From the NCBI GenBank assembly GCA_028697555.1, contig JAQVEX010000001.1, forward strand, positions 4,585 through 68,584: a stretch of 64,000 nt of DNA. The letters are read 5' to 3'. The notes beneath the pieces are model-generated. The model was not told where the DNA came from and searched no databases. It was given only the letters and a program-made list of their open reading frames with translations. This DNA comes from Lentimicrobiaceae bacterium. GTDB lineage: Bacteria; Bacteroidota; Bacteroidia; Bacteroidales; UBA4417. Shown piece by piece: positions 1,265-50,473 of the stretch; the stretch's first letter is position 1, and every line of letters begins with the position of its first letter. The position numbers and the translations under genes were made by a program.

Positions 1265-1276
1265 GAAGATTTGCTT

Positions 1277-1346
1277 TTGGCTATTGGCTGTTAGCCATTA
1301 GCAAATAACAATGAGTAATTACCAATCAGCCCCTGAAGTTTGGGGA
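1277..1346. repeat. heptamer array, 10 units
   Basis: TTGGCTA TTGGCTG TTAGCCA TTAGCAA ATAACAA TGAGTAA TTACCAA TCAGCCC CTGAAGT TTGGGGA. The last units contain the degenerate core CCCCTGAAGTTTGGGG. Confidence 0.8.
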
Positions 1347-1352
1347 TGTTTC

Positions 1353-1422
1353 GACATTTTCGGTCATTGAGTGCCGATATTGAGCGAAGCGAGATATCGG
1401 TGTATCGAAATGCCGAAAATGG
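1353..1422 (+). repeat. conserved nested-hairpin element, copy 1
   Basis: GACATTTTCGGTCATTGAGTGCCGATATTGAGCGAAGCGAGATATCGGTGTATCGAAATGCCGAAAATGG. Outer stem CATTTTCGG.CATT / AATG.CCGAAAATG; inner stem CCGATAT/ATATCGG. Near-identical to 40855-40923. Confidence 0.85.
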
Positions 1423-1450
1423 GGAATAGTTTCAAGTTCTGAATTTTTCT

Positions 1451-1482
1451 CAATAGCCGTGTCTTTAAAGGCACGGCTATTG
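1451..1482. other. near-perfect 32-nt palindrome (11-bp stem), function unknown
   Basis: CAATAGCCGTG TCTTTAAAGG CACGGCTATTG. Confidence 0.7.
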
Positions 1483-1507
1483 AAGCGAAATGCCGAAAAT
1501 ATTACCC

Positions 1508-1530
1508 CGCTCGCTTTGCAAAAGCGAGCG
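1508..1530. other. 10-bp-stem hairpin, function unknown
   Basis: CGCTCGCTTT GCA AAAGCGAGCG. Confidence 0.7.
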
Positions 1531-1547
1531 AGCATCGATAATAACAA

Positions 1548-1582
1548 TTTGCTGGCGCGCTTTTGTAAAGCGTGTCAGCAAA
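1548..1582 (+). other. 16-bp-stem hairpin that is fully paired only as plus-strand RNA (two G-U pairs)
   Basis: TTTGCTGGCGCGCTTT TGT AAAGCGTGTCAGCAAA. G1555 and G1557 pair with T1575 and T1573 as G-U; on the opposite strand these would be C-A mismatches. Confidence 0.6.
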
Positions 1583-1652
1583 AGTAATTGCTAATTACTA
1601 ATTGAAAATTGACCCGTAACCCGTAACCCGCAACACAAAAAAGCTAACAGCT
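1583..1652. repeat. heptamer array, 10 units, ending 2 nt before the waaA stop codon
   Basis: AGTAATT GCTAATT ACTAATT GAAAATT GACCCGT AACCCGT AACCCGC AACACAA AAAAGCT AACAGCT. Confidence 0.8.
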
Positions 1653-1654
1653 TT

Positions 1655-3693: not shown

Positions 3694-3810
3694 ATGGCAA
3701 TATTTACGCGTTTTTATCGACAGCATGATAAAAATTGAGTAGTTCTTTTTATTCTGCAAAGGTAGTAATTATTAAGTTAATAGGTAAAAAATTTATGGAC
3801 ATAAATTTTT

Positions 3811-3922
3811 GGTGGTTGGTGATTGGTGGAGAGTGGAGAGTGGTGAGTGATGAGTGATGAGTGGTAATCGGTGTTTAGAGGTTGAGTTTCGTGCTTTTGC
3901 ACCCTTCACCCTTCACCCACCA
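3811..3922. repeat. heptamer array, 16 units (G-rich arm then C-rich arm)
   Basis: GGTGGTT GGTGATT GGTGGAG AGTGGAG AGTGGTG AGTGATG AGTGATG AGTGGTA ATCGGTG TTTAGAG GTTGAGT TTCGTGC TTTTGCA CCCTTCA CCCTTCA CCCACCA. Confidence 0.8.
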
Positions 3923-4029
3923 CCATTTAATTATCAATACATCGCTTACAGTATAAAAAGTGTTAATCTTTTTCAAAATAATATAATATCGAATTAAATA
4001 TTTATCTTTGAACTTTTAAAACTACAGAT

Positions 4030-5184: not shown

Positions 5185-5964
5185 GTGGATTTGTTTTTCA
5201 GAAAATACGGCAGCGGACAAAATATTATTATTTTGCACGGATTGTTCGGTCAGAGCGACAACTGGATTCCCGTAGCCCGACTTTTGGAAAAGAACTTTAC
5301 AGTCTGGTTGCCCGATTTAAGAAATCACGGACAATCGCCGCACAGCGACGAGTTTAACTATTCAGTTATTGCTCACGATGTTTGCCAATTTGTTTCAAAA
5401 CATAATATCACCGACTTTGTAATTGTAGGTCATTCTATGGGAGGCAAGGCAGCACTTAAAATTTCTGCCGATAATATTTGTCCTGTCAAAGCTCAAATTA
5501 TTATCGATATTGCTCCCAAGCAATACCAAGTGTCTGAATATCATTTGAATATACTCAAATGTATGCAAAATTTGGATTTAGATGAACTGAAATATATCAG
5601 TAATGTTGAAAAAGAGCTGAAACGCCTGCAATTCGACGACTTTACAATTAATTTGATAATCAAGAATTTGAAGTATGTCGATAAGAAATTAGTCTTTAAG
5701 CTGGACGTAGAAAGCATTTACAACAATATTTCCAATATTACGGCTCCCATTATTGCAAATAAGCCAATAGAAACCAAAACACTGTTTATAAAAGCCGATG
5801 AATCGGATTATATAAAAGCTGAGGATTTTGCTTTAATAAAAGAAAGCTACGTAAATGCCGAGTTGCGTATCATAGCTTCGTCTGACCATTATGTTCATGT
5901 TAGGAAACCGGTAGAGTTGAGCAGTTTAATAAGTGAGTGGTTTATGGTGGAAATGAATAATTAA
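5185..5964 (+). CDS. alpha/beta-fold hydrolase (esterase YbfF-like)
   Basis: 259 aa. HGLFG oxyanion region, GHSMGG nucleophile elbow, C-terminal SDHYVH catalytic His. GTG start as given in the ORF track. Confidence 0.75.
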   Translation: MDLFFRKYGSGQNIIILHGLFGQSDNWIPVARLLEKNFTVWLPDLRNHGQSPHSDEFNYSVIAHDVCQFVSKHNITDFVIVGHSMGGKAALKISADNICPVKAQIIIDIAPKQYQVSEYHLNILKCMQNLDLDELKYISNVEKELKRLQFDDFTINLIIKNLKYVDKKLVFKLDVESIYNNISNITAPIIANKPIETKTLFIKADESDYIKAEDFALIKESYVNAELRIIASSDHYVHVRKPVELSSLISEWFMVEMNN

Positions 5965-6055
5965 CAATGAGCAATGAGCAATTACTAATTATTCATTGAT
6001 AATTGATAATCGCATGAGCCCCGCAACACGTAACTCGCAACCCGCACCACGCAAC
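5965..6055. repeat. heptamer array, 13 units, filling the whole stop-to-stop spacer
   Basis: CAATGAG CAATGAG CAATTAC TAATTAT TCATTGA TAATTGA TAATCGC ATGAGCC CCGCAAC ACGTAAC TCGCAAC CCGCACC ACGCAAC. Confidence 0.85.
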
Positions 6056-10791: not shown

Positions 10792-10807
10792 TCCCGAAGT
10801 TTCGGGA
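10792..10807. repeat. core palindrome TCCCGAAGTTTCGGGA
   Basis: Palindromic 16-mer. Related copies at 1330-1345, 17848-17863, 41313-41328, 50392-50407; TTCCGAAATTTCGGAA at 11178-11193. Confidence 0.8.
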
Positions 10808-10808
10808 C

Positions 10809-10857
10809 GGGTTGCGTGGTTCGTGTTACGTGTTGCGTGGTTCGTGGTTCGTGGGAT
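10809..10857. repeat. heptamer array, 7 units
   Basis: GGGTTGC GTGGTTC GTGTTAC GTGTTGC GTGGTTC GTGGTTC GTGGGAT. Confidence 0.85.
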
Positions 10858-10877
10858 TTTCGACTTCCAACAAATTC

Positions 10878-11274
10878 AGCTAACGGCTGTCTTACAGTGA
10901 GGGTTCGGTGCTACGCACCTTGAACGTATGTGCAATTTATTCTATAAATGGTTCGGTGCTAACGCACCTTTTTGGATAACACCTTTTATGGGAAAGATGG
11001 TGGCAGTTTGGTACTGTGCTTATTTTGTTGATAAACGCAGCATCTGTATTTTCGATGGCAAATAACAAAAGCCGTGTAACGGCGTCCCATTTGTAACTGC
11101 AAAACAATAAACTTAAGTTAGGTGCGTAGCACCGAACCATTAAACCCAGTGTGTGAAAATATTTAAACTCGGAATTCTTCCGAAATTTCGGAACGTAAAT
11201 CCCATGCACCCTGCAACCCATCAATGGCTAATGGCTAAAAGCCAAGAGCCAAGAGCCAAGAGCCAAGAGCCAAG
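10878..11274. repeat. 397-bp tandem repeat unit, copy A (about 300 bp unique sequence plus a heptamer tail)
   Basis: Aligns base-for-base with 11275-11670: roughly 20 substitutions plus a 1-nt indel by eye. Contains arms GGTTCGGTGCTACGCACCT (10902-10920), AATGGTTCGGTGCTAACGCACCT (10947-10969), and reverse complement AGGTGCGTAGCACCGAACCATT (11120-11141). Confidence 0.9.
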
Positions 11275-11284
11275 AGCTAACGAC
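11222..11284. repeat. heptamer array, 9 units (tail of copy A)
   Basis: CAATGGC TAATGGC TAAAAGC CAAGAGC x5 TAACGAC. Confidence 0.85.
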
Positions 11285-11670
11285 TATCTTACAGTGAGGG
11301 TTCGGTGCTACGCACCTTGAACGTATGTGCAATTTATTCTATAAATGGTTCGGTGCTACGCACCTTTTTGGACAACACCTTTTATGGGAAAGATTGTGGC
11401 AGTTTGATACTGTGCTTATTTTGCTGATATACGCAGCATCTGTATTTTCGATGGCAATTAACAAAAGCCGTGTAACGGCGTCCCATTTGTAACTACAAAA
11501 CAATAAACTTAAGTTAGGTGCGTAGCACCGAACCATTAAATCCAGTGTGCGAAAATATTTAAACTCGGAATTCTCTCGAAATTTCGGAACTTAAATCCTA
11601 TGCACCCCGCAACCCATCAATGGCTAACGGCTAAAAGCCAACAGCCAACAGCCAAGAGCTAACAGCTAAC
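11275..11670. repeat. 397-bp tandem repeat unit, copy B
   Basis: Arms at 11299-11317, 11344-11365 and reverse complement at 11516-11537. The heptamer tail runs into the hemW 3' end. Confidence 0.9.
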
Positions 11671-11673
11671 AAT
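11618..11673. repeat. heptamer array, 8 units (tail of copy B), overlapping the hemW stop and last 4 codons
   Basis: CAATGGC TAACGGC TAAAAGC CAACAGC CAACAGC CAAGAGC TAACAGC TAACAAT. Unit content differs from the copy A tail. Confidence 0.85.
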
Positions 11674-12792
11674 AAACAAGTCCGATGCTATTTGGTCGGC
11701 GAAAATGCGTTGCGTTTTTGTTAAGGTCAGGTGATTATCTATCTCTGAAAAACATTCGGTTTTGTGTTGTTTTTCAATTTGAGTTATTAAGTAGTTGTAA
11801 TATTTCGAGCCGAATTTATTGCTAATCAGTTGTAAGTCAATTCCTATTGAAGTCCGAAGTGAGGTCATGATGTATTCGTTGAAATTATCGTTTAACGACA
11901 AATTTTCGCATTGAGCCGGAATTTTATTTTCGTTTATGCTCCTTATATATTCGGAAATATTACTTGTATTCCAACATCTGCGATTGTTGTTGAAGGAATG
12001 AGCTGAAGGTCCAATTCCCAAATACGGCGTATATTGCCAATAAGCGGAGTTATGTTTCGACTCAAAATTATCCACAGCATAGTTAGATATTTCGTAGTGA
12101 TTGTACCCTTTTCCTGTCAAAAAATCTTCAATCAAAAAGTATTGCTCTGTACTTGTGTCTTCGTTGGGAGATGCTTTTTTGTTATTTTCGATTTGCCATT
12201 TCAGTTGGGTTTTATCTTCAACAGAAAGCGAATAAGCCGAAATATGAGGAATTTTATTATCGCACATAAAAGCCAAATCGCTGATAAGCATGTTGTTATC
12301 AAGTGTTGGAATGCCGTAGATAAGGTCGATGCTCATGTTGTGGAAGCCGTGTTCCAAAGCACTTAGTATGCTATTGATAGCTTTTTCGCCGCTGTGGTTT
12401 CTGCCCAAATAATTTAAAGTCGCATCGTTTGTCGATTGTATTCCAATGCTCAGGCGGTTTATTCCAACGCTTTTCCACATCAGTAAGTTCTCTTTGCAAA
12501 TATCTTCCGGATTGGATTCCAAAGTAATTTCTTCAACATTACTAATATCGAAATTTTTACTAACGGCGTTGAAAATGCTTTCAATTTGTGATTTATTAAG
12601 CATTGATGGAGTTCCACCGCCAAAATATATAGTTTTTATCGGGTTTTTATCGAAGAAATTTTTTTGCAGATGGATTTCTTTTACAATCGCATCAACGCAT
12701 TCTTGCATTTTGCTTTTGGTGGCTAAGGAAAAGAAATTGCAATAACTGCACTTGCTACGGCAAAAAGGGATATGAACGTAAATTCCGCACAT
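11659..12792 (-). CDS. hemW: radical SAM heme chaperone / coproporphyrinogen III oxidase-like protein
   Basis: 377 aa. CRSKCSYCNF (CxxxCxxC) near the N-terminus, GGGTPS motif, HemN_C-like tail. The last four codons lie inside a heptamer array. Confidence 0.85.
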   Translation of the reverse strand: MCGIYVHIPFCRSKCSYCNFFSLATKSKMQECVDAIVKEIHLQKNFFDKNPIKTIYFGGGTPSMLNKSQIESIFNAVSKNFDISNVEEITLESNPEDICKENLLMWKSVGINRLSIGIQSTNDATLNYLGRNHSGEKAINSILSALEHGFHNMSIDLIYGIPTLDNNMLISDLAFMCDNKIPHISAYSLSVEDKTQLKWQIENNKKASPNEDTSTEQYFLIEDFLTGKGYNHYEISNYAVDNFESKHNSAYWQYTPYLGIGPSAHSFNNNRRCWNTSNISEYIRSINENKIPAQCENLSLNDNFNEYIMTSLRTSIGIDLQLISNKFGSKYYNYLITQIEKQHKTECFSEIDNHLTLTKTQRIFADQIASDLFIVSC

Positions 12793-14353: not shown

Positions 14354-15316
14354 TTAGTTTTTTTTCTTCTCTTTCTCCTTCTCCTTCTCCTTCTCCTTCT
14401 CTTTCTCCATTTCTTCTTCTATTTTGAACAGTTCAGTTGCTCTTTTAATATCTTCAAGTTGTGCCGGAGTAGCTTTTGGGTATTTTATGTTTAATTTTTT
14501 AATGTTTTCAACTATTATATTAATGACTAATGTCCGCATAAACCATTTGTTATCGGCAGGGATAACGTACCATGGAGCGCAGTTAGTTGAGGTGTTGACG
14601 AGAGTATCTTCGTAGGCATCCATAAAATCTTTCCAATGTGCTCTATCTTCAACGTCTTTAATTGAAAACTTCCAGTTTTTATCGGGGTCTTCAATTCTAT
14701 CCACCAAACGACGTTTTTGTTCGGCTTTTGAAATGTTAAGGAAAAACTTGATTATTACAGTGCCGTTGTTGGTAAGGTATTTTTCAAAGTTATTGATATC
14801 TTTAAAGCGTGTATCCCAAAACTTTTGGTTGTTTTTAACATCTTTTGGAGAGTTTGGAAGTCGCTGGTATTCAATAAGTTTAGGGTGCACTCTTGTAACA
14901 ATAACTTCTTCGTAATACGAGCGATTAAAAATTCCGATTTTACCCCTTTCGGGAAGGCGTTTAATACATCGCCACATAAAATCGTGGTCTAATTCTTCGG
15001 GTGACGGAGCCTTAAAGCTGGTAATATCGCAACCCTGCGGATTTACACCTGACATAACGTGCTTTATTGTCCCGTCTTTGCCTGCCGCATCCATGGCTTG
15101 AAAAATAATCAAAACGGCGTATTTGTCTTGTGCGTAGAGAACTTCTTGCATCTCTTTAAGTTCGCTAATACTGCTTTGGATTTGTTCTAATGCTTCTGTT
15201 TTGTTGTTAAAGCCGTCAATATCAGGTTTAGTCATCTGACTAAAACGTCTATGAGCTTTGGGGTTATAAATATAACGTTCTGTATCCATAGTGTTTGCGG
15301 TTATAGGTTTGCCCAT
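14354..15316 (-). CDS. polyphosphate kinase 2 (PPK2) family protein with C-terminal (EK)n tail
   Basis: 320 aa. FQAMDAAGKDG P-loop-like motif, FNRSYYEEV, PPK2 lid region. Start is uncertain: ATG 15316 overlaps the upstream gene by 16 nt, with an alternative ATG at 15289. Confidence 0.8.
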   Translation of the reverse strand: MGKPITANTMDTERYIYNPKAHRRFSQMTKPDIDGFNNKTEALEQIQSSISELKEMQEVLYAQDKYAVLIIFQAMDAAGKDGTIKHVMSGVNPQGCDITSFKAPSPEELDHDFMWRCIKRLPERGKIGIFNRSYYEEVIVTRVHPKLIEYQRLPNSPKDVKNNQKFWDTRFKDINNFEKYLTNNGTVIIKFFLNISKAEQKRRLVDRIEDPDKNWKFSIKDVEDRAHWKDFMDAYEDTLVNTSTNCAPWYVIPADNKWFMRTLVINIIVENIKKLNIKYPKATPAQLEDIKRATELFKIEEEMEKEKEKEKEKEKEKKKN

Positions 15317-17549: not shown

Positions 17550-17661
17550 TTTGCAAAAATAAAATATTGGAGTTATTAACGGCTTAACGAGCTGATTTAT
17601 TTTTATTGCTGTAGGATAATACCTTAAAAAAATAGTTCTGCGGCTTATGTTTAATGCCTTT

Positions 17662-17927
17662 GGCTCTTAGCCTTTAGCTTTTGGCTTTTTTGTGGTTGGT
17701 GGTTGGTGATGGGTGATGGATGATGGGTGATGGATGATGGGTGATGGATGATGGGTGATGGGTGATGGGTGATGGGTGATGGATGATGGGTGATGGGTGA
17801 TGGGTGATGGGTGAGTTTTGAGTTATGAGTTAAGAGTCAGGAGTTGATCCCGAATTTTCGGGACGAAACTCTAAACTAGGAACTCGAAACTAACTCGTAC
17901 CCCGCAACTCACAACGCCAACAGCAAT
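17662..17927. repeat. heptamer array, 38 units, including 16 consecutive GGRTGAK units (17704-17815) and the core TCCCGAATTTTCGGGA (17848-17863)
   Basis: GGCTCTT AGCCTTT AGCTTTT GGCTTTT TTGTGGT TGGTGGT TGGTGAT then GGGTGAT/GGATGAT units, then GGGTGAG TTTTGAG TTATGAG TTAAGAG TCAGGAG TTGATCC CGAATTT TCGGGAC GAAACTC TAAACTA GGAACTC GAAACTA ACTCGTA CCCCGCA ACTCACA ACGCCAA CAGCAAT. Confidence 0.9.
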
Positions 17928-17951
17928 TTATTTTATAATATTAGTCTATTT

Positions 17952-18683
17952 TCACACTTTACTCACATCGTCGTTGTTATCAGACGAGTCTTCATCTAAG
18001 AACTTCATATTGTTTGGGTTAAATGGGCTCTTGGAACGGTGTTCGCGAACGTATTTGAAACCGACTCTGTACAGGTAAAATACATAAGGAATAAAAATCA
18101 ACAACATTAAGTTGTATCCTGTCATCAAAAAGAAATCGTAAAGTCCGTGTAACATCCACGGAACAACGAATGCCAATGTTGAATACCTGCTTTTTTTGCC
18201 GTCTTTTTTAAATTTAGCCAATCCGAGATAGTAACCCATGGTAACTCCAAATATAGCGTGAGCCGGCACAGCCGTAATAGCTCTTAGCAATCCGACGTTA
18301 AGAGAGTTTTCGGAAAACACGTACATTATGTTTTCAACGCAAGCAAAACCCAAGCTTACAGAAACGGCATATACAATGCCATCGAACTTTTCGTTAAACT
18401 CTTTGCTGCGCCAAAACAGTATTATTGTAGCTAAAAATTTAAACAACTCTTCGGAAAAGCCGGCAACAATAAAGCCATCGTAAAAAGCCGACATTATTTT
18501 ATTTCCTTCAAAAATATTTAGCAAACCCAAAAACTGCTCAAGAAAAATGACTGGAATAATTATAAAAATTCCACCTACAAAGCCTTTAATTACAAGGCGT
18601 ATAGGCTCTCTTTCGTATTTATCGGAAAAATAAATATAAAATAGGATTATTAATACTGGGGCAATGGCTATTGTGAAGAGCAT
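17952..18683 (-). CDS. PrsW-family intramembrane metalloprotease
   Basis: 243 aa, polytopic. EELFKF, HAIFG and HGLYDF motifs. Confidence 0.7.
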   Translation of the reverse strand: MLFTIAIAPVLIILFYIYFSDKYEREPIRLVIKGFVGGIFIIIPVIFLEQFLGLLNIFEGNKIMSAFYDGFIVAGFSEELFKFLATIILFWRSKEFNEKFDGIVYAVSVSLGFACVENIMYVFSENSLNVGLLRAITAVPAHAIFGVTMGYYLGLAKFKKDGKKSRYSTLAFVVPWMLHGLYDFFLMTGYNLMLLIFIPYVFYLYRVGFKYVREHRSKSPFNPNNMKFLDEDSSDNNDDVSKV

Positions 18684-18706
18684 AAAGTTTTTTTACGAAT
18701 AAATAT

Positions 18707-19279
18707 TTATTTTGTGTTCAAAATTTGTTCAAGTAGGTGTTCATACCATTCTTTGCCGTACTTTTCAATCAGGGGTTCTTTTAAGAAAATGTACAAAGGT
18801 ACGTTATCAGCTTCTCCTTTAACCAAAGCATCTTGACATATGTACCATTTTTGGTAATTAACCACTTCGGTTCCGTCGCTGAGTTTGCTGAGCCTTATAG
18901 GGTATAAAAAGCAAGATATAGGTTTTCTGAAATTGATTTTTCCATCTCTGAATGCTTTTTCTATGGCACATAAAGCAATATCACCATCGTAAACCATGAA
19001 AGTACAGGCTCCTTTTTCTTTCAGAGAAGTAACAAATTCTCCATCATCATCGTAATCAAAGGTTCCGTACTTCTCCAACGCTTCTAAGCCTTCTTTATCC
19101 ATGTATTGTTTGATGATTTCGATATTTTCTTCGATAGTTTCAATTTCCGTTTCTAAAATAGGAGCTCCGGCATCGCCTTCGATGCAACATATCCCTTTGC
19201 AGGCTTTAAGGTCGCAGCTGAATTTAACATATTCTATGTCGTCGCTAACGAGTACATTATCAACTATAATCATTTTCAT
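18707..19279 (-). CDS. DUF3109-family Cys-rich protein
   Basis: 190 aa. N-terminal CDLKACKGICCIEGDAGAP pattern as remembered for DUF3109. Confidence 0.55.
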   Translation of the reverse strand: MKMIIVDNVLVSDDIEYVKFSCDLKACKGICCIEGDAGAPILETEIETIEENIEIIKQYMDKEGLEALEKYGTFDYDDDGEFVTSLKEKGACTFMVYDGDIALCAIEKAFRDGKINFRKPISCFLYPIRLSKLSDGTEVVNYQKWYICQDALVKGEADNVPLYIFLKEPLIEKYGKEWYEHLLEQILNTK

Positions 19280-30909: not shown

Positions 30910-33507
30910 ATGAAAAAAATAACCTTTTTAATATTGATATTAACTTTAATATCGAGTGTAGTGTTTTCTCAGACTACAACCACGTACACATTTAACGATC
31001 TTAACGTTGGACCTTTAAACGGTCAGGATAATTGGGTTTCGGTTAAACATAGTGCCGGTGGCGGTGTCAACGAAGTAGATTATATTGGACCTCAGGGTGT
31101 CGTTACTCCAGACCAATCTTTGGGTGTGTTTTTCAAACATGCCAATACCAATTATGGAGAAGTTGCGACAAGAAAATCTACTTCAAATTTTAATTTCGAC
31201 TTTTCGCAAGGCGGAATCATCCAATTGGAATTGGATTTGAGTAACTGTAACTATTGGGGATATGCATTCGGCTTGGGCTACGATGCCGACCAAAATGGAA
31301 CGCTACTGCCACCAATGATATACGAGGCGGTTTATCCCAACCCAAACCTTCCCACACAAGATGGAGGTATATATTTGGTTCTTACAGCTCACAAGGATGA
31401 TAACGATCCCAGATTTCACTGCGGTATTGTTTTGCCCAACAATACGATGCCTGTCGAGTTTAAACTTCCGGACAGAGAATCATGGATGCGTTTCAGAATC
31501 TTTATAGATTTAGAAGCTAACAACGGTTCCGGAAGTGTTGCTTTGTTCCTTGATAATGGAATTACAGGAGAATTTCAGCCCATACCTGAAATTCAGGGCA
31601 TAGATGCAGGTCTAACACCCGGTTCGGGCGATAGATTTGACCCGAATGTTTGGGATGCGGTATTCTTCTTAAGCAGTAGCCATGGAGGTTTCGACAACTT
31701 TACAGTTACTCAAATTCCGGCAGGATTGCAAACTCAATTTATTAACTTCCCAACAATCCCCGATAAACTAATATCGGCAGAACCTTTTACGGTATCAGCC
31801 ACATGTACATCAGGATTGCCAATATCTTATGAAATTGTTAGCGGACCTGCTACCATCGATGGCGACCTTGTTACTTTGACCGGAGACCCGGGAATTGTTA
31901 GAATTAAAGCTTCACAAGGAGGAAATAGTACGTGGTTAGCTGCTCCCGATGTTATTCAACAGTTTGAAGTTGTTGACCCTTCGGCTTTTGTGCCCGAGAT
32001 AAAAATCAGAAGACCATACGATGGAACCAAGGTATATGCCGAAACACTCGACCCACTACTTATGGTTGTTTCGGTCGATATTGAACACCCCGATGTGATT
32101 CTTGTCGAAAATATGGAATTTAATATTAACGGACAGATAGTAAAATGTAAAAATGCCGGCAATAACTATTTTACAGCGCTTTGGGAACAACCGACGTACG
32201 GAACACACATAGCTAACTTGTCAACTACAATGTCGGGCGACAATACTTACGTTACACAAGCAAGCTTTGAAGTAGTTTCGCAAACAAACAACTATGAAGT
32301 ATTAACTTTTGATGGAAGTTTCCATATTTCACCAACCAACCATACAGTTACTGGCGAATTTGTATTCCCAACGTTTATAGGAGGTTACAACGAAATTAAT
32401 GCATTTTTGGATATGAATTGTGCACCCGGCGGTTGCGACACATACGATAGAGTTGGAAGAGTTAAAGCTAAAAATATACACGGTGATTATGTAGAATTGT
32501 TTAAGTACATCACACCTTTCGGAGTGCCATGTAGCGATGCAGTCGAGCTTACTGATTACTCTTCCGTGCTTCAAGGGTTGGTTGAATTTACTTTTGAAGT
32601 CGTAACATGGAACAGTGGTGGATATTTGCCGGTTTTGAATTTTGAATTTATTAAAGGAACTCCTGAATACAAATATTCTGATGTTGTTGAGATATGGAAT
32701 GGCAGGTTTGATTTCGGCGATTATATCAACCTTCAACCTGTGCCACCAATTCAATGGACTTTCAATCCTAATGCAAAAAAATCATCACTCATAGTAAGCA
32801 CTACCGGACACAATTGGAGTAGCAATACTGCACCAAATTATTCGGTTAATACCGGTAATGCTGCCGAATTTTACGAAGCTACACACCATATTAATATAGA
32901 CGGAATAAAAGAGTTTGTACAGCATTTGTGGCCCCAAAGTGGGACTTGTACACCTAATCCGGCAGGTTGTCAACCTCAAAACGGAACATGGACATTTCCT
33001 CGTGCAGGCTGGTGTCCTGGTTCTATTGCTATGATTTGGAATTGGGATTTAACTCAATTTATTAGCAACGGCTCAATAGATATGGAATACATTTTTGACC
33101 CTGATTACGTCGACCTTTGCCATCCAAATCACCCCGATTGTGTTGACGGAACAAATGGATGTCCAAACTGTGCCGCACCCGACAATCCAATATTGGACGT
33201 TTCTGCTAAAATTGTTACATATAGCAATAATAGTAGCTTATACGTAGGAAATAACGATTATAAGGTTATTGATAACTTAATTTCTTTCAACCTATATCCT
33301 AACCCTGCAAATCAAAAAGTTTTAATTACTGCAGATAATATAGACAAAGTTTTTTCAGCCAATATTATCAATTTCTTAGGTCAAACTGTAAAAACCTTCC
33401 AATTCGTAGGTTCAAAAATTATAGATATTTCAGACCTTCCAAAAGGTATTTACATTGTAAATATTGTAGGACAGAGATCGGCATCGAAGAAACTTGTTGT
33501 TAACTAG
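30910..33507 (+). CDS. multidomain T9SS cargo protein with PNGase F-like catalytic region, paralog 2
   Basis: 865 aa, collinear with paralog 1 and carrying the same PNGase F-like motifs (NCAPGGCDTYDRV, AAEFYEATH, PRAGWCPG). C-terminal YPNPANQKVLI...KGIYIVNI sorting domain. Its stop codon TAG is the first 3 nt of a heptamer array. Confidence 0.7.
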   Translation: MKKITFLILILTLISSVVFSQTTTTYTFNDLNVGPLNGQDNWVSVKHSAGGGVNEVDYIGPQGVVTPDQSLGVFFKHANTNYGEVATRKSTSNFNFDFSQGGIIQLELDLSNCNYWGYAFGLGYDADQNGTLLPPMIYEAVYPNPNLPTQDGGIYLVLTAHKDDNDPRFHCGIVLPNNTMPVEFKLPDRESWMRFRIFIDLEANNGSGSVALFLDNGITGEFQPIPEIQGIDAGLTPGSGDRFDPNVWDAVFFLSSSHGGFDNFTVTQIPAGLQTQFINFPTIPDKLISAEPFTVSATCTSGLPISYEIVSGPATIDGDLVTLTGDPGIVRIKASQGGNSTWLAAPDVIQQFEVVDPSAFVPEIKIRRPYDGTKVYAETLDPLLMVVSVDIEHPDVILVENMEFNINGQIVKCKNAGNNYFTALWEQPTYGTHIANLSTTMSGDNTYVTQASFEVVSQTNNYEVLTFDGSFHISPTNHTVTGEFVFPTFIGGYNEINAFLDMNCAPGGCDTYDRVGRVKAKNIHGDYVELFKYITPFGVPCSDAVELTDYSSVLQGLVEFTFEVVTWNSGGYLPVLNFEFIKGTPEYKYSDVVEIWNGRFDFGDYINLQPVPPIQWTFNPNAKKSSLIVSTTGHNWSSNTAPNYSVNTGNAAEFYEATHHINIDGIKEFVQHLWPQSGTCTPNPAGCQPQNGTWTFPRAGWCPGSIAMIWNWDLTQFISNGSIDMEYIFDPDYVDLCHPNHPDCVDGTNGCPNCAAPDNPILDVSAKIVTYSNNSSLYVGNNDYKVIDNLISFNLYPNPANQKVLITADNIDKVFSANIINFLGQTVKTFQFVGSKIIDISDLPKGIYIVNIVGQRSASKKLVVN

Positions 33508-33581
33508 CCTTTAGCTTTTGGCTTTTAGCCATTGGCTAAGAAAGCTAACAGCTAACAGCTAATAGCTAAAAGCTAATTGAT
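33505..33581. repeat. heptamer array, 11 units forming two reverse-complementary arms; starts on the stop codon of PNGase-like paralog 2
   Basis: TAGCCTT TAGCTTT TGGCTTT TAGCCAT TGGCTAA GAAAGCT AACAGCT AACAGCT AATAGCT AAAAGCT AATTGAT. Confidence 0.85.
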
Positions 33582-33622
33582 TTATAGCAAACCTTATTGT
33601 TGCTTTTCTGGACTTCAACAAG

Positions 33623-40125: not shown

Positions 40126-40797
40126 TTGGCACGTAATAAATTAAAGAAGTTTAAAGAAACCTCAGAGTTTTACCATTTTTTTCAGCCTACACGTCAGGAA
40201 TTATTAGATGGCTTTGAATTGAGAGGAAGATGGAATAAGATTTTCTTTAAAAATGATGTTCCGCTTATCATTGAGGTAGGTTGTGGTAGAGGCGAATATG
40301 TTGTTGAGTTATCTCAAAAATTTCCGAACAAAAACTTCATAGGTATTGATAAAAAGGGAGCCAGAATGTGGACAGGTGCTAAATATACAATCGACCAAAA
40401 CATTACAAATGTTGCTTTTTTACGAATTTTAGCCGAAGACGTTAATCTTGCGTTTGCCCAAAACGAAGTTGACGAAATATGGATTACTTTTCCTGAGCCT
40501 CAACCCAAAAAATCTAAGGAAGCAAAACGATTTACCTCGCCTGAATTTTTGAAAAGATATGCACAAATTCTGAAATCAGATGCAGTTATCAATCTTAAAA
40601 CCGATGATACCGCTTTTTTTGATTACACGCTTAGTGTTATCGAAAAATACAACCACGAAATCTTGTACGTAACGGAAGATTTATATGCTCAAAATAGCTT
40701 GAACGATAACGAAATTTTGAATATAAAAACTCATTACGAAAGTATATGGTTAGATAAGGGTTTAACTATAAAGTATCTAAAATTTAAGTTAAAATAG
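40126..40797 (+). CDS. trmB: tRNA (guanine46-N7)-methyltransferase
   Basis: 223 aa (TTG start per ORF track). EVGCGRGEY SAM motif, WITFPEPQPKK motif. Its stop codon TAG is the first 3 nt of a heptamer array. Confidence 0.85.
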   Translation: MARNKLKKFKETSEFYHFFQPTRQELLDGFELRGRWNKIFFKNDVPLIIEVGCGRGEYVVELSQKFPNKNFIGIDKKGARMWTGAKYTIDQNITNVAFLRILAEDVNLAFAQNEVDEIWITFPEPQPKKSKEAKRFTSPEFLKRYAQILKSDAVINLKTDDTAFFDYTLSVIEKYNHEILYVTEDLYAQNSLNDNEILNIKTHYESIWLDKGLTIKYLKFKLK

Positions 40798-40857
40798 CTC
40801 TTGGCTTTTAGCCTTTGGCTTTTTGGTTGGTACGTGGTTCGGGTTGCGTGTTGTGAC
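40795..40857. repeat. heptamer array, 9 units, starting on the trmB stop codon
   Basis: TAGCTCT TGGCTTT TAGCCTT TGGCTTT TTGGTTG GTACGTG GTTCGGG TTGCGTG TTGTGAC. Confidence 0.85.
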
Positions 40858-40923
40858 ATTTTCGGTCATTGAGTGCGATATTGAGCGAAGCGAAATATCG
40901 GTGTATCGAAATGCCGAAAATGG
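40855..40923 (+). repeat. conserved nested-hairpin element, copy 2
   Basis: GACATTTTCGGTCATTGAGTGCGATATTGAGCGAAGCGAAATATCGGTGTATCGAAATGCCGAAAATGG. Differs from copy 1 by one deleted C and one G-to-A change. Confidence 0.85.
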
Positions 40924-40995
40924 AGAGTAAATAGTGTTGCGGGGTAGCTGTTGGCTAAAATTTTACTTATTAAAAATCCTTTTTACTCAGAATAT

Positions 40996-41054: not shown

Positions 41055-41227
41055 GGTTTTTATTGTCTAAAGGCAATAAAAAATTCCTTGTAAAAAGTGT
41101 CTTTTCTTTTGTTTCGTTTTCTTTGGACAAGCAAAGAAAATGAAAGGAACCAAATAGAAACTGTAAAAGTTTAATGATTGCGGACTTGCCACACGATGCA
41201 ATCGTGCGGCAGCAAAGGGATTAAAAT

Positions 41228-41458
41228 AGCTCTTGGCTTTTAGCCTTTGGCTGTTGGCTGTTACGTGGTGTGTGGTGCGTGGTCGGGTTATCAATTAACA
41301 ATGAGCAATGAGCCCCGAAGTTTCGGGAGAGTACCGTAACTCCCGACTCGTAACTTGTAACTCGTAACTCAATACTTCTACCTTCTGACTTCTAATTTCT
41401 AATTTTATTCTGCTAAAGGCTAACGGCTAAAAGCAAATAGCCAACAGCTAACAGCCAA
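41228..41458. repeat. heptamer array, exactly 33 units, ending 1 nt before the amidohydrolase stop; core CCCCGAAGTTTCGGGA at 41313-41328
   Basis: AGCTCTT GGCTTTT AGCCTTT GGCTGTT GGCTGTT ACGTGGT GTGTGGT GCGTGGT CGGGTTA TCAATTA ACAATGA GCAATGA GCCCCGA AGTTTCG GGAGAGT ACCGTAA CTCCCGA CTCGTAA CTTGTAA CTCGTAA CTCAATA CTTCTAC CTTCTGA CTTCTAA TTTCTAA TTTTATT CTGCTAA AGGCTAA CGGCTAA AAGCAAA TAGCCAA CAGCTAA CAGCCAA. Confidence 0.9.
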
Positions 41459-41459
41459 T

Positions 41460-42647
41460 TTACAAACTTTGCATAATCGCGTACGCCATAAATCCGGCAC
41501 CATTTGCTATAGCTCTTTCGTCGATATCAAAAATAGGGGTGTGTATATTCCTTATTTCTTTCCAATCTGGATTTTTTACACCTAAACGGTAAAAACAAGC
41601 AGGTACAACGTGTGAGTAGTAGGCAAAATCTTCGGCTGTCATTCTTGGCTCAATGTCAACAACATTGTTTTTTCCAAAGTAGCTGATAGCAGCTTTTTTC
41701 ATGTTTTGAGTTAAAGCCTTGTCGTTTAATAAATAAGGGTAACCTTTATCGATAAAGACTTCACACTCGGCGCCCATAGCATTGGCAATATTTTTTGCAA
41801 TATGAGTAATTTTTTCGTGAGCTTCGGCACGCCATTTTTCGTCGAAAGTGCGTATTGTTCCGTCAATTTTAACAATATCGGGTAGAACGTTAGTCCTGCC
41901 TTCGGCGATAAATCTACCAAAACTTAATACTGTAGGAATAGTTGGAGGAGCACATCTGCTAACTACTTGCTGCAGCGCAACTACTATATGCGAAGCCGTC
42001 AAAACCGTATCGGTACTTAGGTTGGGTAAAGCTCCGTGTCCGCCTTTACCTTTTATTGTCAGATAAATTTCATCGGTGCTAGCCATAGCTTTTCCGCTAA
42101 CAAAACCAACCTTTCCTACTTCCAATTCGGGTAAAACGTGTTCGCCGATAATAAATTGCGGAGTTGGATTTGTGAGTACGCCTTCTTCAATCATAGCTTT
42201 TGCTCCACCCGGAAAAGTTTCTTCCGAAGGTTGAAAAATAAATCGTACGGTTCCATTAAATTTATCTTTAAAATTATTGAGAATAAATATCGCACCAAGC
42301 AAGCAAGTCATGTGAACGTCATGTCCGCATGCGTGCATAACACCAGGGTTAATAGAAGCGTAATCAACATTGTTTTTTTCGCTTATGGGTAGTGCATCCA
42401 TGTCGGCTCTAAGTGCAACGGTTTTGCTTTCGGGATTAACACCTTTAATTTCGCCCACTATACCATAACCGCCAATATTACAACTATGCTTTATCTTCCA
42501 TTTAGACAAAACAGAGCTAATAAAATCGGCAGTTTTTTCTTCTTGCTTAGAAAGCTCAGGGTGTTTATGAAGATGTCTTCTGTAACCTATAAGTTCAGTT
42601 TCTATTTTTTCAGAAAGGCTTTTTATTTCATCAATTAAGCTTTGCAT
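41460..42647 (-). CDS. M20-family amidohydrolase (N-acyl-L-amino-acid amidohydrolase/hippuricase-like)
   Basis: ORF 41460..42680. RRHLHKHPELSKQE, ACGHDVH, FQPSEE motifs. Start placed at ATG 42647..42645 (MQSLIDEI), which gives the usual N-terminal length; ATG 42680 is also possible. Confidence 0.8.
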   Translation of the reverse strand: MQSLIDEIKSLSEKIETELIGYRRHLHKHPELSKQEEKTADFISSVLSKWKIKHSCNIGGYGIVGEIKGVNPESKTVALRADMDALPISEKNNVDYASINPGVMHACGHDVHMTCLLGAIFILNNFKDKFNGTVRFIFQPSEETFPGGAKAMIEEGVLTNPTPQFIIGEHVLPELEVGKVGFVSGKAMASTDEIYLTIKGKGGHGALPNLSTDTVLTASHIVVALQQVVSRCAPPTIPTVLSFGRFIAEGRTNVLPDIVKIDGTIRTFDEKWRAEAHEKITHIAKNIANAMGAECEVFIDKGYPYLLNDKALTQNMKKAAISYFGKNNVVDIEPRMTAEDFAYYSHVVPACFYRLGVKNPDWKEIRNIHTPIFDIDERAIANGAGFMAYAIMQSL

Positions 42648-47141: not shown

Positions 47142-47185
47142 TAAAATAATTAAGCAACAAAAATGTTATACTTACAAAATTAAAT

Positions 47186-48478
47186 ATGCTTAAAAAACAT
47201 TTTCTAAAAACTTTCATCGGGCTTGTACTTGTTGCTGCTTTTTTAAATTCTTGTAAGACCGATGACTCATCTATAGGTATAGAACTTTTATCAACCGATG
47301 ACCTTTTAAAAACAGGCTACGTAGATACCATAACAATAGAAGGGTACACAGTTTACGACGATTCATTAAACACTTTAGGTTGCACATATGCACTGATAGG
47401 AAGTCTTAATGATCCCGTTTTCGGACAAACACAAGCCAACTTTTACACACAAATACGACCATCAACAGCAAAAGTTAATTTCGGAACATCGCCTGTTGCC
47501 GATTCAGCATTTCTATACTTGCCTTACCGAAAAGTGTCCTATGGCGATAGCGTTTCAAACTTGAAATATAAAGTTTATATGCTAAGCGAAGGCTTTCCCG
47601 ATTCGGTTAGTATGTATTCACACCATACTCTTGACTATTCCGACGATGATTTGATTGGCGAAACGGTTTTCAGACCCGATTATTCGGGAAGCAATCCGCA
47701 CCTTAAAATACCATTAAATCAAAAATTTACCGAAAAACTTTTTAGTGCCGATACGTCAGTCATGAGTGACGTTGATAAGTTCTTGAATTTTTTTAAAGGT
47801 ATAGTTATAATTGCAGAGCCACAGACATATCAAAATTCAGGCTCCATTGTTGGGTTTAACGCTCCCAGCGATTTATGTAAAATAACCATATTTTATCAAG
47901 CACAAGGCGACACATTACAAAAACAATACAACTTCTTGATAAACACTTTTTGTAAGAGATTTCAGCATTATTCGCACGATTATTCAACAGCAGTACCGCA
48001 ACTTAAAAATCAGTTGGACGGAGATTTAAGCTTGGGTAACGAATTTGTTTTCTTACAAGCAATGAGCGGAGTTAAAACAAAAATCAGGTTTCCACACATT
48101 AAAAACTTAAAAAAAGATGAGATTATTGCTATAAACGATGCTCAGTTGATAATAAAAAGTGCTTCAAATTCGGATGTTTTTCAGAAACCCTCCAAATTGA
48201 GTTTGCGTTTGGCAGGCGCTAGCGGAACAACAAGTCCTATGGCTCTCCCCGACGAAGCTACTGGTTATTTTGATGGAACTTATGATGATAAAACTCAAAC
48301 CTACAGATTTAGAATCTCGCGGTACGTTCAGCAAATTATCAATGATGATATAGATGGCAGAAACGGTTTGTTTTTGTTGATACCGGCAAGTAACACCGGT
48401 ACCAGATTGGTGCTACATGGTTTTCAATCGCCGGAAGCTCAAATTAAGTTATATATAAAGTATTCAATAATTAAATAG
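47186..48478 (+). CDS. DUF4270-family lipoprotein
   Basis: 430 aa. Lipobox FLNSC. Sits after the short glycogen-synthase gene, as I recall for DUF4270 in Bacteroidota. Confidence 0.5.
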   Translation: MLKKHFLKTFIGLVLVAAFLNSCKTDDSSIGIELLSTDDLLKTGYVDTITIEGYTVYDDSLNTLGCTYALIGSLNDPVFGQTQANFYTQIRPSTAKVNFGTSPVADSAFLYLPYRKVSYGDSVSNLKYKVYMLSEGFPDSVSMYSHHTLDYSDDDLIGETVFRPDYSGSNPHLKIPLNQKFTEKLFSADTSVMSDVDKFLNFFKGIVIIAEPQTYQNSGSIVGFNAPSDLCKITIFYQAQGDTLQKQYNFLINTFCKRFQHYSHDYSTAVPQLKNQLDGDLSLGNEFVFLQAMSGVKTKIRFPHIKNLKKDEIIAINDAQLIIKSASNSDVFQKPSKLSLRLAGASGTTSPMALPDEATGYFDGTYDDKTQTYRFRISRYVQQIINDDIDGRNGLFLLIPASNTGTRLVLHGFQSPEAQIKLYIKYSIIK

Positions 48479-48487
48479 TAATGCATA

Positions 48488-50326
48488 ATGTGTGGAATAG
48501 TTGCTTATTTAGGAAATAGAAATACGGTTGACGTTCTTATTTCGGGATTAAAACGCTTGGAATATAGGGGCTACGACAGCGCCGGAATAGCTGTTCTTGA
48601 CAAAGAAATAAAAACCTACAAAACTAAGGGTAAAGTAGCTGATTTAGAAGGGCTTATTAAAGACAAAAACCTGTCGGGTAAAATTGGTATGGCTCATACT
48701 CGTTGGGCTACTCACGGAGAACCTAACGATATTAATGCGCACCCACACTATTCGGAGTCGCAGAAAATAGCAATTATTCATAACGGAATTATTGAAAATT
48801 ATCAGGTATTAAAAAAGGAATTAATTAATCGCGGTTATACATTCAAAAGCGACACTGATTCGGAGGTGATAGCCCATCTTATTGAAGATATAATGGATAA
48901 GGAAAACTTATCGCTTACCGAAGCTGTTAGTGTTGCTCTTAAAGGATTGGTAGGAGCGTACGCACTTGTGATATTGAGTGAAGAGAACCCCGATATGATA
49001 ATAGCAAGTCGTAAAGGAAGCCCCATGGTTGTTGGTATTGGAGAAGATGAGTATTTTATAGCTTCCGATGCATCACCTTTGGTTTCTTATACCCGTGAGG
49101 TGTTTTATCCCGAAGAAGGAGATGTTGTTACGGTTTCGCTTTCGGATGGACTTAAAGTTAGAACTCTAGATAATAAAGAACAAATTCCATATATAGAGCA
49201 TTTAGAGCTTAGTTTAAGCGAAATAGAAAAAGGTGGCTATCCCCATTTTATGCTTAAAGAAATATTTGAGCAACCCAATACGGTTAAAGATAGCATGCGT
49301 GGAAGATTAATTATTGACCACGGAAAAGTTATTTTGGGAGGTATGAGAGAGTATCTTAACAAAATGATAAATGCTAGACGTATAATCATTTTGGGCTGCG
49401 GAACATCGTGGCATGCAGGCATAGTTGGAGAATATTTGATAGAAAAATTGGTTCGTATTCCGGTTGAGGTTGAATACGCTTCGGAGTTTCGTTACAGAGA
49501 CCCCATTATTTATCCAGATGATATTGTTATTGCAATATCGCAATCGGGCGAGACTGCCGATACTATTGCTGCTATTAAGATAGCTAAATCGAGAGGTGCT
49601 ACCATTTTGGGAATATGTAATGTTGTAGGTTCAACCATTGCACGCTTAACCGATGCTGGCTCATACACTCACGCAGGTGTTGAAATAGGTGTGGCTTCAA
49701 CCAAAGCTTTTACAGCACAAGTAACAGTGCTTACTTTACTTGCTTTGATGCTAGCCAAGGAAAAGGGCGAAATTACACAAGCTGATTTTAATAAGTTGGT
49801 ATATGAGTTTGACGATATTCCCGAAAAAATTAAAAAGACTTTAGAATTGAACAATAAAATCCTTGAAATTGCAGAAAAGATAAAAAACTCGACTAATGCA
49901 TTATATTTAGGACGAGGTGTTAATTATCCTATTGCTCTTGAAGGAGCATTAAAACTTAAGGAAATATCTTATATACATGCCGAAGGTTATCCTGCTGCTG
50001 AAATGAAACACGGTCCTATAGCTCTTATCGACGAGGATATGCCTGTTATAGTTATAGCTACCAAAAAAGGGCAATACGATAAAGTTGTAAGCAATATTCA
50101 GGAAGTTAAAGCACGCAAGGGTGTAGTGATAGCTGTAGTTACAGAAGGCGATGTTGATGTTAAAAACATAGCCGATTATGTAATTGAAATTCCCGAAACC
50201 GACGAAATTTTTGTACCCTTAACAGCTACCATTCCGCTACAATTATTGTCGTATCATGCAGCAGTACTCCGTGGTTGTAACGTTGACCAACCAAGAAATT
50301 TGGCAAAATCGGTAACGGTGGAGTAG
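48488..50326 (+). CDS. glmS: glutamine--fructose-6-phosphate aminotransferase
   Basis: 612 aa. MCGIVAY N-terminal nucleophile, two SIS domains, C-terminal NLAKSVTVE. Confidence 0.95.
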   Translation: MCGIVAYLGNRNTVDVLISGLKRLEYRGYDSAGIAVLDKEIKTYKTKGKVADLEGLIKDKNLSGKIGMAHTRWATHGEPNDINAHPHYSESQKIAIIHNGIIENYQVLKKELINRGYTFKSDTDSEVIAHLIEDIMDKENLSLTEAVSVALKGLVGAYALVILSEENPDMIIASRKGSPMVVGIGEDEYFIASDASPLVSYTREVFYPEEGDVVTVSLSDGLKVRTLDNKEQIPYIEHLELSLSEIEKGGYPHFMLKEIFEQPNTVKDSMRGRLIIDHGKVILGGMREYLNKMINARRIIILGCGTSWHAGIVGEYLIEKLVRIPVEVEYASEFRYRDPIIYPDDIVIAISQSGETADTIAAIKIAKSRGATILGICNVVGSTIARLTDAGSYTHAGVEIGVASTKAFTAQVTVLTLLALMLAKEKGEITQADFNKLVYEFDDIPEKIKKTLELNNKILEIAEKIKNSTNALYLGRGVNYPIALEGALKLKEISYIHAEGYPAAEMKHGPIALIDEDMPVIVIATKKGQYDKVVSNIQEVKARKGVVIAVVTEGDVDVKNIADYVIEIPETDEIFVPLTATIPLQLLSYHAAVLRGCNVDQPRNLAKSVTVE

Positions 50327-50473
50327 GTTTACGGGTTGCGTGTTGCGAGTTGCGGGCAATAAACAATTAACAATTAGTAATTATCAATTATCCCCAAAAC
50401 TTCGGGGTTCATTGCACATTGCTAATTGCTAAAACCACCCATCACCCATCACTCATCACCGATCACTCATAAC
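50327..50473. repeat. heptamer array, 21 units, spanning from the glmS stop to the stop of the convergent gene
   Basis: GTTTACG GGTTGCG TGTTGCG AGTTGCG GGCAATA AACAATT AACAATT AGTAATT ATCAATT ATCCCCA AAACTTC GGGGTTC ATTGCAC ATTGCTA ATTGCTA AAACCAC CCATCAC CCATCAC TCATCAC CGATCAC TCATAAC. Confidence 0.9.

Follow-up and report, generated by a model that had tools for sequence, protein, structure and literature searches.

The 64,000-nt window analysed here, a stretch of contig JAQVEX010000001.1 from a Lentimicrobiaceae bacterium, carries in its intergenic spacers arrays of contiguous 7-nt units whose sequence changes gradually along the array. Judged from their sequence, these arrays are mosaic heptanucleotide simple-sequence repeats (SSRs), a local form of a class that has already been described, and both this assignment and the way in which the arrays change can be given with high confidence. 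The reading that is considered likely as a whole is that of heptamer SSR arrays placed on the 3' side of genes and driven by slippage, with a tentative role at transcript 3' ends.

The period of seven

The 7-nt period was recovered in several ways. Tandem Repeats Finder returned 68 rows, of which 36 have period 7 and five more period 14 or 21; the spacers named for the arrays hold 32 of the 36 period-7 rows. In a sliding lag-7 test (42-nt window, identity of at least 60%), 13 segments summing to about 1.5 kb passed (Table 1), all of them non-coding and situated between large open reading frames (ORFs). The number of passing positions was 697 at lag 7 versus 0-50 for lags 4-11, and only 0-6 in first-order Markov simulations (n = 20). 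The original prediction, made from the letters of this DNA, that the spacers consist of drifting 7-nt units with an excess of period 7 over randomised sequence, is borne out by these results.

Neighbouring units had also been described as mostly 0-2 substitutions apart, and in the parse that accompanied that description the difference is indeed at most two substitutions in 62% of cases, compared with 1.8% in coding controls. Identity declines from lag 7 to lag 14 and again to lag 21, and this decay of similarity is the reason for speaking of a drift, or of a walking consensus. Every long array contains a central stretch of 14-35 nt in which neighbouring "units" differ at 5-7 of the seven positions, and the phase across this stretch is therefore undefined. 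The absence of phase slips over 33-38 units, claimed from a parse with hand-chosen boundaries, does not stand for that reason.

The chief contributor to the small lag-6 signal is a CTTCTC hexamer repeat of seven copies (14366-14424), which lies inside the 3' end of a PPK2-family ORF (14354-15316, minus strand) and probably encodes a Glu/Lys-rich tail.

Unit families and the core hairpin

The recurring unit families are TTRGCYN, GGTGATG-like, GTTGCGN/GTTACGN, GAGTTNN, CAATTAN/CAATGAG and AATTAGA-like, plus their complements, and the same families return at unlinked loci in both orientations, in agreement with the small vocabulary noted at the outset. An array read on the plus strand is G/T-rich on its left side and gives way to the C/A-rich complement on its right, the arms being 70-80% complementary; in the spacer 1265-1654, for instance, the arms at 1302-1326 and 1587-1611 are 80% complementary. 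The largest array (17662-17927) passes through four TTRGCYN units, about 18 units of GGTGATG type, five GAGTTNN units, the core CCCGAATTTTCGGG (17849-17862), four or five NNAACTC units and finally CGCAAC-type units.

At or near the centre of seven array sites stands a 14-nt GC hairpin, CCCGAAnTTTCGGG, with 17 matches in the window (at most two mismatches) versus 1.1 expected. This small GC-rich tetraloop hairpin, around which the unit families are mirrored, is a lineage-specific and less well documented feature of the arrays: among about 165 fetched loci it is confined to this species and its sister species, and about 160 other loci have arrays but no such hairpin. Its flanks differ at each of the seven sites. 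The uniqueness first claimed for each locus stands in so far as the loci are not copies of one another apart from this core; it fails for the hairpin itself, for a segment of about 25-27 nt present at both 40797 and 41229, and for a pair of arrays contained in a 396-bp tandem duplication.

Independent assemblies

Four Logan short-read contigs from three sequencing runs, which carry proteins of the window (L001, L002, L083 and L084), match the window base for base in the comparisons at 17790-20160, 40779-40817 and 50395-50481, and all four terminate within an array or a repeated array module. The exact matches up to the break take in 4 to 10 units together with core hairpins. In assemblies of the sister species from NCBI, JGI and Logan, arrays occupy the same spacers, and the array between the M20 and TrmB genes is identical in five of these assemblies.

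That the arrays are assembly artefacts, for which the breaking of short-read contigs at the arrays might be cited, is scarcely credible, because contigs of three independent runs reproduce the window exactly until they break and the sister-species assemblies carry arrays at the corresponding spacers. The arrays, whose absence from independent assemblies had been named as one of the findings that would overturn the original prediction, are present in them. An artefact is ruled out for the parts covered by contigs, with the unit count of the longest homogeneous run (17705-17814) resting on the window assembly. Since contigs systematically break at arrays, the arrays are likely to be under-represented in metagenome-assembled genomes (MAGs).

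Turnover between relatives

Slippage, which had been put forward as one possible origin, is backed by unit gain and loss in the orthologous spacers of relatives, the comparison that had been proposed for this purpose. The flanks of these spacers are about 95% identical to those of the sister species, and the arrays differ by block insertions and deletions. The CACCCAT run differs between window and sister by 84 nt (12 units); the same array shows 24-nt and 47-nt replacements, one of them deleting the core hairpin, and the presence or absence of the core between relatives takes the form of a replaced segment, 32 nt versus 8 nt. The variable position of the AANAGCC array is occupied by G all along one of the window copies, by C in its duplicate and by T in the sister, which has two additional units (14 nt); this uniformity within copies and the 14-nt difference point to concerted evolution of a tandem array.

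The M20-TrmB spacer retains its core and inner modules in the same order in window and sister, while the outer TTRGCYN arms comprise two and two units in the sister versus seven and five in the window, and a run of ACACG-type units numbers ten versus three. The window has an extra segment of about 430 nt in this spacer, including the half array at 40796-40853 and having array sequence repeated directly over 25 nt at its borders, which the sister lacks.

The arginase-GlmS spacer is represented by three alleles that differ in their unit families. The flanks of two of these alleles have an identity of 99.955% on one side (17.6 kb) and of 98.9% on the other, and this shift in identity across the spacer indicates a homologous-recombination junction at the array. 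The assemblies L165 (3377-3474) and L166 (3421-3474) have an identical butyrate kinase and wholly different arginase-GlmS arrays.

Synteny with the sister stops inside the 20066 array, and the 33505 array is found only where the window has a convergent neighbour, the sister being without that neighbour. Gene order relative to the sister (L003 and L165-L167) changes exactly at two array spacers, 20057-20215 and 33505-33622.

These alleles show that units slip or are exchanged unequally, that point mutations occur, that modules are replaced and that the arrays recombine; the enzymology is what we infer from them. A metagenome scan with the butyrate kinase yielded no close orthologue (best match 65%) and served as a survey of related Bacteroidales. 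In these loci (0.9 Mb) there were 50 lag-7 segments versus 2-17 for lags 4-12, and many of the segments are mosaics with drifting units and lineage-specific vocabularies.

Gene context and strand polarity

Arrays are borne by six of the seven convergent spacers of the window, by two co-directional spacers, where both arrays lie beside the upstream stop codon, and by one of the six divergent spacers, counts that confirm the ones first reported (Fisher p = 0.005, and 0.0005 when an independent ORF map is used). They touch or include flanking stop codons, also as reported, for example at 5965, 33508, 41458 and 50327. The preference extends to the related loci (about 1.9 Mb fetched), in which the share of spacers with an array was 7.8% for convergent, 6.9% for co-directional and 1.4% for divergent gene pairs (p = 0.01), and in the co-directional spacers of these loci the array was closer to the stop codon in 31 cases versus 17.

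Gene ends with arrays have a characteristic strand composition. Over the first 63 nt past the stop codon, G outnumbers C on the sense strand in 11 of the 13 gene ends of the window (median +9), and control gene ends of the window without arrays (n = 11) range from -5 to +4 and are mostly negative. In other Bacteroidales the same excess was seen at 22 of 27 array ends, with a mean of +8.9 versus +1.3 for 779 array-free ends, and in 17 of 21 cases (p = 0.007) after related loci had been removed from these lineages. The mRNA-sense strand beside the stop is thus G-rich and C-poor, and the distal halves are C-rich and nearly G-free, as in the 17 CACCCAT units. Replication strand cannot account for this polarity in convergent spacers, where a single DNA strand is skewed one way in the first half and the other way in the second. 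The G>C polarity of the sense strand beside stops, which is also present in other Bacteroidales, is a further feature that is less well documented.

A "stop-codon pad", in which the units would serve to close all three frames, was considered and rejected: stops per 63 nt number 4.8 in sense, 4.2 in antisense and 3.8 in shuffles of the sense strand, with no sense-specific enrichment.

Folding, terminators and G-quadruplexes

The predicted folds of the arrays exceed shuffled sequence in stability, the z-scores of the minimum free energy (MFE) lying between -1.1 and -4.9 for dinucleotide shuffles and between -0.3 and -4.4 for heptamer-block shuffles, with -4.9 and -4.0, respectively, for the array at 33505-33578. 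The arms can thus form the long imperfect hairpins that had been suggested. Selection for such hairpins is weakly supported: at the level of single units, mirror partners match at 5.28 of 7 positions versus 4.88 of 7 for non-partners (p = 0.03), and compensatory pairing between the arms, with only this weak excess, was set aside. In the predicted hairpins (33502-33578 and other mirrored arms) the unpaired positions coincide with variable positions of the unit and so return at intervals of about 7 nt. With mismatches so spaced, the stems would be helices of about 6 bp split by single mismatches, not long perfect duplexes.

No intrinsic terminator, that is, a GC-rich stem-loop followed by a T run, was found within the arrays or at the core hairpins, and terminator-like sites in the scanned regions were not more frequent than in shuffles (21 versus 17.4 and 11 versus 13.2). 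Three of the six array-bearing convergent spacers, those with arrays at 33508, 40798 and 50327, are devoid of a hairpin-plus-T-tract terminator over their whole length, which is a third of the less well documented features. The best terminator-like hairpin of the scanned regions (1506-1532, minus strand; 12 pairs, then a T-rich tail) is located in the spacer 1265-1654, between its two array arms and downstream of a Kdo-transferase gene, and the same spacer contains more GC-rich palindromes at 1450-1483 and 1548-1582.

Canonical G-quadruplex motifs, defined as at least four consecutive G3+ tracts with loops of 1-7 nt, occur at 17753-17776 and 17788-17811 only, in the GGGTGAT run of the plus strand, and are the sole ones in 64 kb; the plus strand at 17753-17811 is the template strand of the upstream PrsW-family gene. 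The other 12 arrays have none, and with one run of 13 arrays qualifying, G-quadruplexes were discarded as a general explanation.

Relation to described repeat classes

The original prediction held that no description of such architecture existed. This was wrong, as intergenic heptanucleotide tandem repeats have already been published (PMC4679880, PMC4692102). According to these two papers, which summarise Mrázek 2007, heptamers are the long SSRs met most often in many bacteria, with an explanation by slippage that is tied to the polymerase footprint. Three tandem heptanucleotides were described from Calothrix, and the G-rich heptamers GGGAATC (Xanthomonas) and GGGGAYT (Nostoc) form intergenic arrays that vary in length and sequence at the same loci of close species and include some inverted pairs able to form stem-loops (Rehm et al. 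2015, PMC4692102). Microcystis arrays mix several heptamers, Cyanothece strains differ by 7-nt insertions or deletions, and intergenic regions of Gramella, Aequorivita and Elizabethkingia contain "larger assemblages of heptamer repeats" that are missing from relatives and at which contigs end (PMC4679880).

The long 7-nt SSRs of Mrázek et al. 2007 and Huang & Mrázek 2014 resemble the window arrays in being tandem, intergenic heptamers, abundant in scattered lineages, with a supposed slippage origin; that work reportedly counts near-perfect copies of one unit, whereas the window has graded, mirrored mosaics with a gene-end place and polarity. The G-rich heptamers of Xanthomonas and Nostoc (PMC4692102) are likewise intergenic and allele-variable with inverted pairs, and the GGGTGAT run of the window forms a G-quadruplex motif too, but there a single G-rich unit type is involved and here only one array in 13 has G-quadruplex potential. 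TAACTGA and its companion heptamers (MacGregor 2015, PMC4679880) share with the window the mixed intergenic arrays in Bacteroidetes, the 7-nt indel steps, the repeat-ended contigs and a suggested link to rearrangement, and there too relatives have spacers that are shorter and free of the repeats. In Beggiatoaceae, however, one fixed heptamer is found just upstream of start codons, whereas the window arrays lie downstream of stops; no TAACTGA run was noticed among the parsed window units, no search aimed at that motif having been made. All three traits of the broad class of heptanucleotide long SSRs, namely tandem 7-nt units, a non-coding place and unit-step variation between relatives, were found for the window arrays.

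The short tandemly repeated repetitive (STRR) sequences of heterocystous cyanobacteria, which have been used for fingerprinting, are dispersed heptanucleotide tandem arrays as well; they were reportedly introduced by Mazel and colleagues in 1990 as intergenic heptanucleotides in a genome of about 40% GC. They belong to another phylum and have other units, with few fixed consensus heptamers in place of the broader drifting vocabulary seen here. An STRR in the strict sense was rejected, given the Bacteroidales host and units (TTRGCYN, GGTGATG, GTTGCGN, GAGTTNN and CAATTAN) that are unlike the STRR consensus sequences.

Repetitive extragenic palindromic (REP) sequences are conserved palindromes of 20-40 nt copied by a RAYT transposase, and are common between convergent genes. 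Together with bacterial interspersed mosaic elements (BIMEs) and REP doublets forming hairpins (REPINs), they resemble the arrays in being extragenic, palindromic, able to form hairpins in transcripts and common between convergent genes. Here conservation is limited to the 14-nt core, each locus has tandem-heptamer arms of its own, and a Pfam scan that took in 40 of the 46 large ORFs of the window found no RAYT. Three of the exclusions made originally hold: unlike clustered regularly interspaced short palindromic repeats (CRISPR), with repeats of 23-50 nt and unique spacers, the units are 7 nt long and contiguous; a MITE (miniature inverted-repeat transposable element) is discounted, as the arrays are not mutual copies apart from the core and their presence or absence reflects replaced segments, not clean insertions; nor are the arrays plain single-unit microsatellites.

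Proposed mechanism and alternatives

In the explanation preferred here, the arrays grow, shrink and become homogenised by whole 7-nt units, as is to be expected from replication slippage or unequal exchange, and point mutations make the unit consensus "walk". Larger events replace modules, insert other small elements or place the end points of rearrangements inside arrays. It is proposed that the arrays persist on the 3' side because hypermutable repeats would do least harm in 3' spacers. Transcripts reading out of a gene would copy the G-rich arm first and its C-rich complement afterwards; with unit families mirrored and polarity set by the sense strand, read-through transcripts or DNA single strands could fold into long, regularly mismatched hairpins. 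Most plausibly, the arrays would be tolerated and in part exploited, between converging genes, as two-way transcription barriers or insulators that dispense with a U tract or as stabilisers of mRNA 3' ends. This structural role at the 3' end, which we infer from position, polarity and folding, is conceivable but rather doubtful.

Several observations weigh against the explanation as a whole. It gives no account of the unit length of 7 nt, for which the polymerase-footprint idea comes from the literature only. The case for hairpin selection at the unit level is weak, as the figures above indicate, and most of the complementarity between arms is one unit family used in opposite orientation. Several arrays have no complementary partner, among them the GGTGATG run of 18 units, the modules inside 41228-41458 and the sister orthologue of the 17662 array. 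In the spacer 1265-1654 a canonical terminator-like hairpin, complete with its T tract, stands between the two arms, and the array there looks like 3'-untranslated-region content rather than a terminator. Indel lengths are not always divisible by seven, as those of 24 and 47 nt show.

A mobile palindromic element centred on CCCGAAnTTTCGGG, similar to a REPIN, a MITE or a small dispersed repeat (SDR) and served by a transposase elsewhere, would make the heptamer arms slippage products or a landing site. Mobile repeats of 21-27 nt are said to have been described in Nostoc by Elhai and co-workers in 2008. The occurrence of the core at seven array sites, far above expectation, its limitation to the species pair, its presence in the window and absence from the same place in sister alleles, the similar order of modules around it at several loci, and the further small repeated elements in or beside arrays would all suit such an element. 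It is nonetheless improbable: terminal inverted repeats and target-site duplications are missing from the borders of the arrays, the core difference between relatives is a replaced segment and no clean insertion, four arrays (3804, 5965, 20066 and 33505) lack the core, the loci are not mutual copies outside it, and neither a transposase nor a RAYT or reverse transcriptase was present among the scanned ORFs.

About as improbable is a stronger form of the functional idea, in which the sense-oriented, G-rich and C-poor heptamer arrays that directly follow stop codons in Bacteroidales would be a selected, fast-evolving class of 3'-end elements. Copies mirrored about a small GC hairpin would then work, without a U tract, as two-way barriers between converging genes and constitute a lineage-wide alternative to intrinsic terminators, unnoticed owing to the breaks in short-read assemblies, and the 7-nt spacing of mismatches would prevent perfect palindromes or long perfect double-stranded RNA.

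The periodicity and polarity might instead have been selected directly if the arrays were multi-site platforms for RNA or DNA binding, with one unit per protein domain (a cold-shock or S1-type OB-fold), or if their order of G-rich before C-rich sequence delayed Rho loading to the far half of the spacer. The G-rich, C-poor sense strand beside stops, which is also seen in independent Bacteroidales lineages with unrelated units, agrees with this idea, and the distal C-rich, nearly G-free halves resemble Rho loading sites. MacGregor 2015 discusses CspB binding at one heptamer per protein (PMC4679880). Such a platform is distinctly unlikely: unit sequences differ between loci, alleles and lineages, contrary to what a sequence-specific binder would require, a Rho loading site would be masked if the G-rich halves paired with the C-rich ones, and a canonical G-quadruplex motif occurs in one run only (17753-17811).

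A dedicated enzyme adding units from a template, akin to telomerase or a reverse transcriptase, had been offered as an origin, and the stepwise look of neighbouring units speaks for it. Nothing else points to it, and it is very improbable, as similarity that decays with distance is the outcome of local duplication plus mutation, the unit families are too diverse for a single template, the same class occurs in phyla for which no such enzyme is described, and no reverse transcriptase, RAYT or similar gene was among the scanned ORFs.

Gene content and other elements of the window

The genes of the window are ordinary chromosomal genes of Bacteroidales type; among them are a SusC/SusD-like pair, genes with sorting domains of the type IX secretion system (T9SS), CHU_C, a butyrate kinase and enzymes of housekeeping function. 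A Lentimicrobiaceae MAG comes closest among genomes: its PrsW-family protein shares 91% of the amino acids, and its syntenic blocks have about 87-94% nucleotide identity. A known RNA family was dismissed as the identity of the arrays: an Rfam scan of the window reported no family at the gathering threshold except one tRNA and left the arrays unrecognised, and permissive Rfam scans of two array spacers gave weak, chance-level matches only. The tRNA gene (59010-59083, minus strand; 69.6 bits) lies in an array-free co-directional spacer.

Other repeated elements accompany the arrays (Table 1). The structured element of about 70 nt has a second copy at 40855-40924, likewise directly beside an array, its form also being written GACATTTTCGGTCATTGAGTGC...ATCGAAATGCCGAAAATGG. 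It was seen in the window only, being absent from the other fetched loci and from Rfam, and may represent either a very short mobile element or a small RNA. In each copy of the 396-bp duplication a right-arm array accompanies an element whose inverted ends read GGTTCGGTGCTACGCACCT (10902-11138 in one copy, 11299-11534 in the other). Separate MITE-like elements are present within two array spacers.

Table 1. Coordinates of the periodic segments, arrays and accompanying elements in the window
Feature	Position	Strand	Description
Lag-7 segments 1-7	1263-1331, 1577-1663, 3797-3890, 5933-6021, 10798-10876, 11202-11301, 11601-11692		
Lag-7 segments 8-13	17641-17853, 20057-20215, 33510-33595, 40793-40857, 41224-41471, 50323-50489		
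Left arm, convergent spacer 1265-1654	1270-1329		TTRGCYN, then AATAACA/ATGAGTA/ATTACCA; begins 6 nt past TAG stop 1262-1264
Core hairpin variant CCCCTGAAGTTTGGGG	1330-1345		
Structured element of about 70 nt, GACATTTTCGGTCATTGAGTGC...CCGAAAATGG	1353-1423	+	Adjoins array; internal inverted repeats
Right arm, spacer 1265-1654	1577-1653		NTAATTG, ACCCGTA and AAAGCTA units; mirrors left arm
Sole array in a divergent spacer	3804-3927		GGTGGTT/AGTGGAG/AGTGATG left, CACCCTT right; arms 74% complementary
Array in convergent spacer, stop codon to stop codon	5965-6055		CAATGAG/TAATTAT/TAATTGA, then CGCAAC-type
Core hairpin CCCGAAGTTTCGGG (10793-10806) with array	10793-10856		GGTTGCG/GGTTCGT/GTTACGT
396-bp tandem duplication	10878-11666		2.0 copies, 94% identical; single-copy in sister species (L003)
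Array, copy 1 of duplication	11202-11284		CACCCTG/CAACCCA, then AATGGCT and AAGAGCC x5
Array, copy 2 of duplication	11598-11671		AACAGCC type; enters stop codon of gene 11659-12792 (minus)
Largest array, co-directional spacer	17662-17927		About 25 nt downstream of PrsW-family gene stop
Array adjoining stop of gene 20203-21345 (minus)	20066-20202		TTRGCYN x5 mirrored by AGCCAAN x5, then CTCATTG x4, CCACCAC
Cleanest mirror array	33505-33578		Five TTRGCYN facing five AGCTAAN; 78% complementary; includes TAG stop of gene 30910-33507
Half array right after TrmB-family gene stop	40796-40853		TTRGCYN x4, then GGTTGG/ACGTGG/GTTGCGT
33-unit mosaic array	41228-41458		Core CCCGAAGTTTCGGG at 41314-41327; outer TTRGCYN/GCYAANN arms mirrored, inner modules non-complementary
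Array filling the convergent spacer between GlmS and arginase-family genes	50327-50473		GTTGCGN x4, CAATTAN x5, core CCCCAAAACTTCGGGG, CATTGCN x3, CATCACC x6

Significance

The arrays combine several under-documented features, namely mirrored modules, a lineage-specific core hairpin, the G>C polarity of the sense strand and a very fast turnover of alleles. The arrays are break points of short-read Bacteroidales MAG assemblies, and all short-read contigs recovered for this species end there. Recombination junctions, insertions and synteny breaks cluster at the arrays, which makes them strain-level markers and a nuisance for binning and scaffolding. A lineage in which many unit families stand side by side is also a good setting for studying the preference for 7-nt units across distant bacteria. 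If the place at gene ends and the G>C polarity were functional, the arrays would bear on a little-understood mode of transcript termination or insulation, half of the array-bearing convergent spacers being without a canonical terminator.

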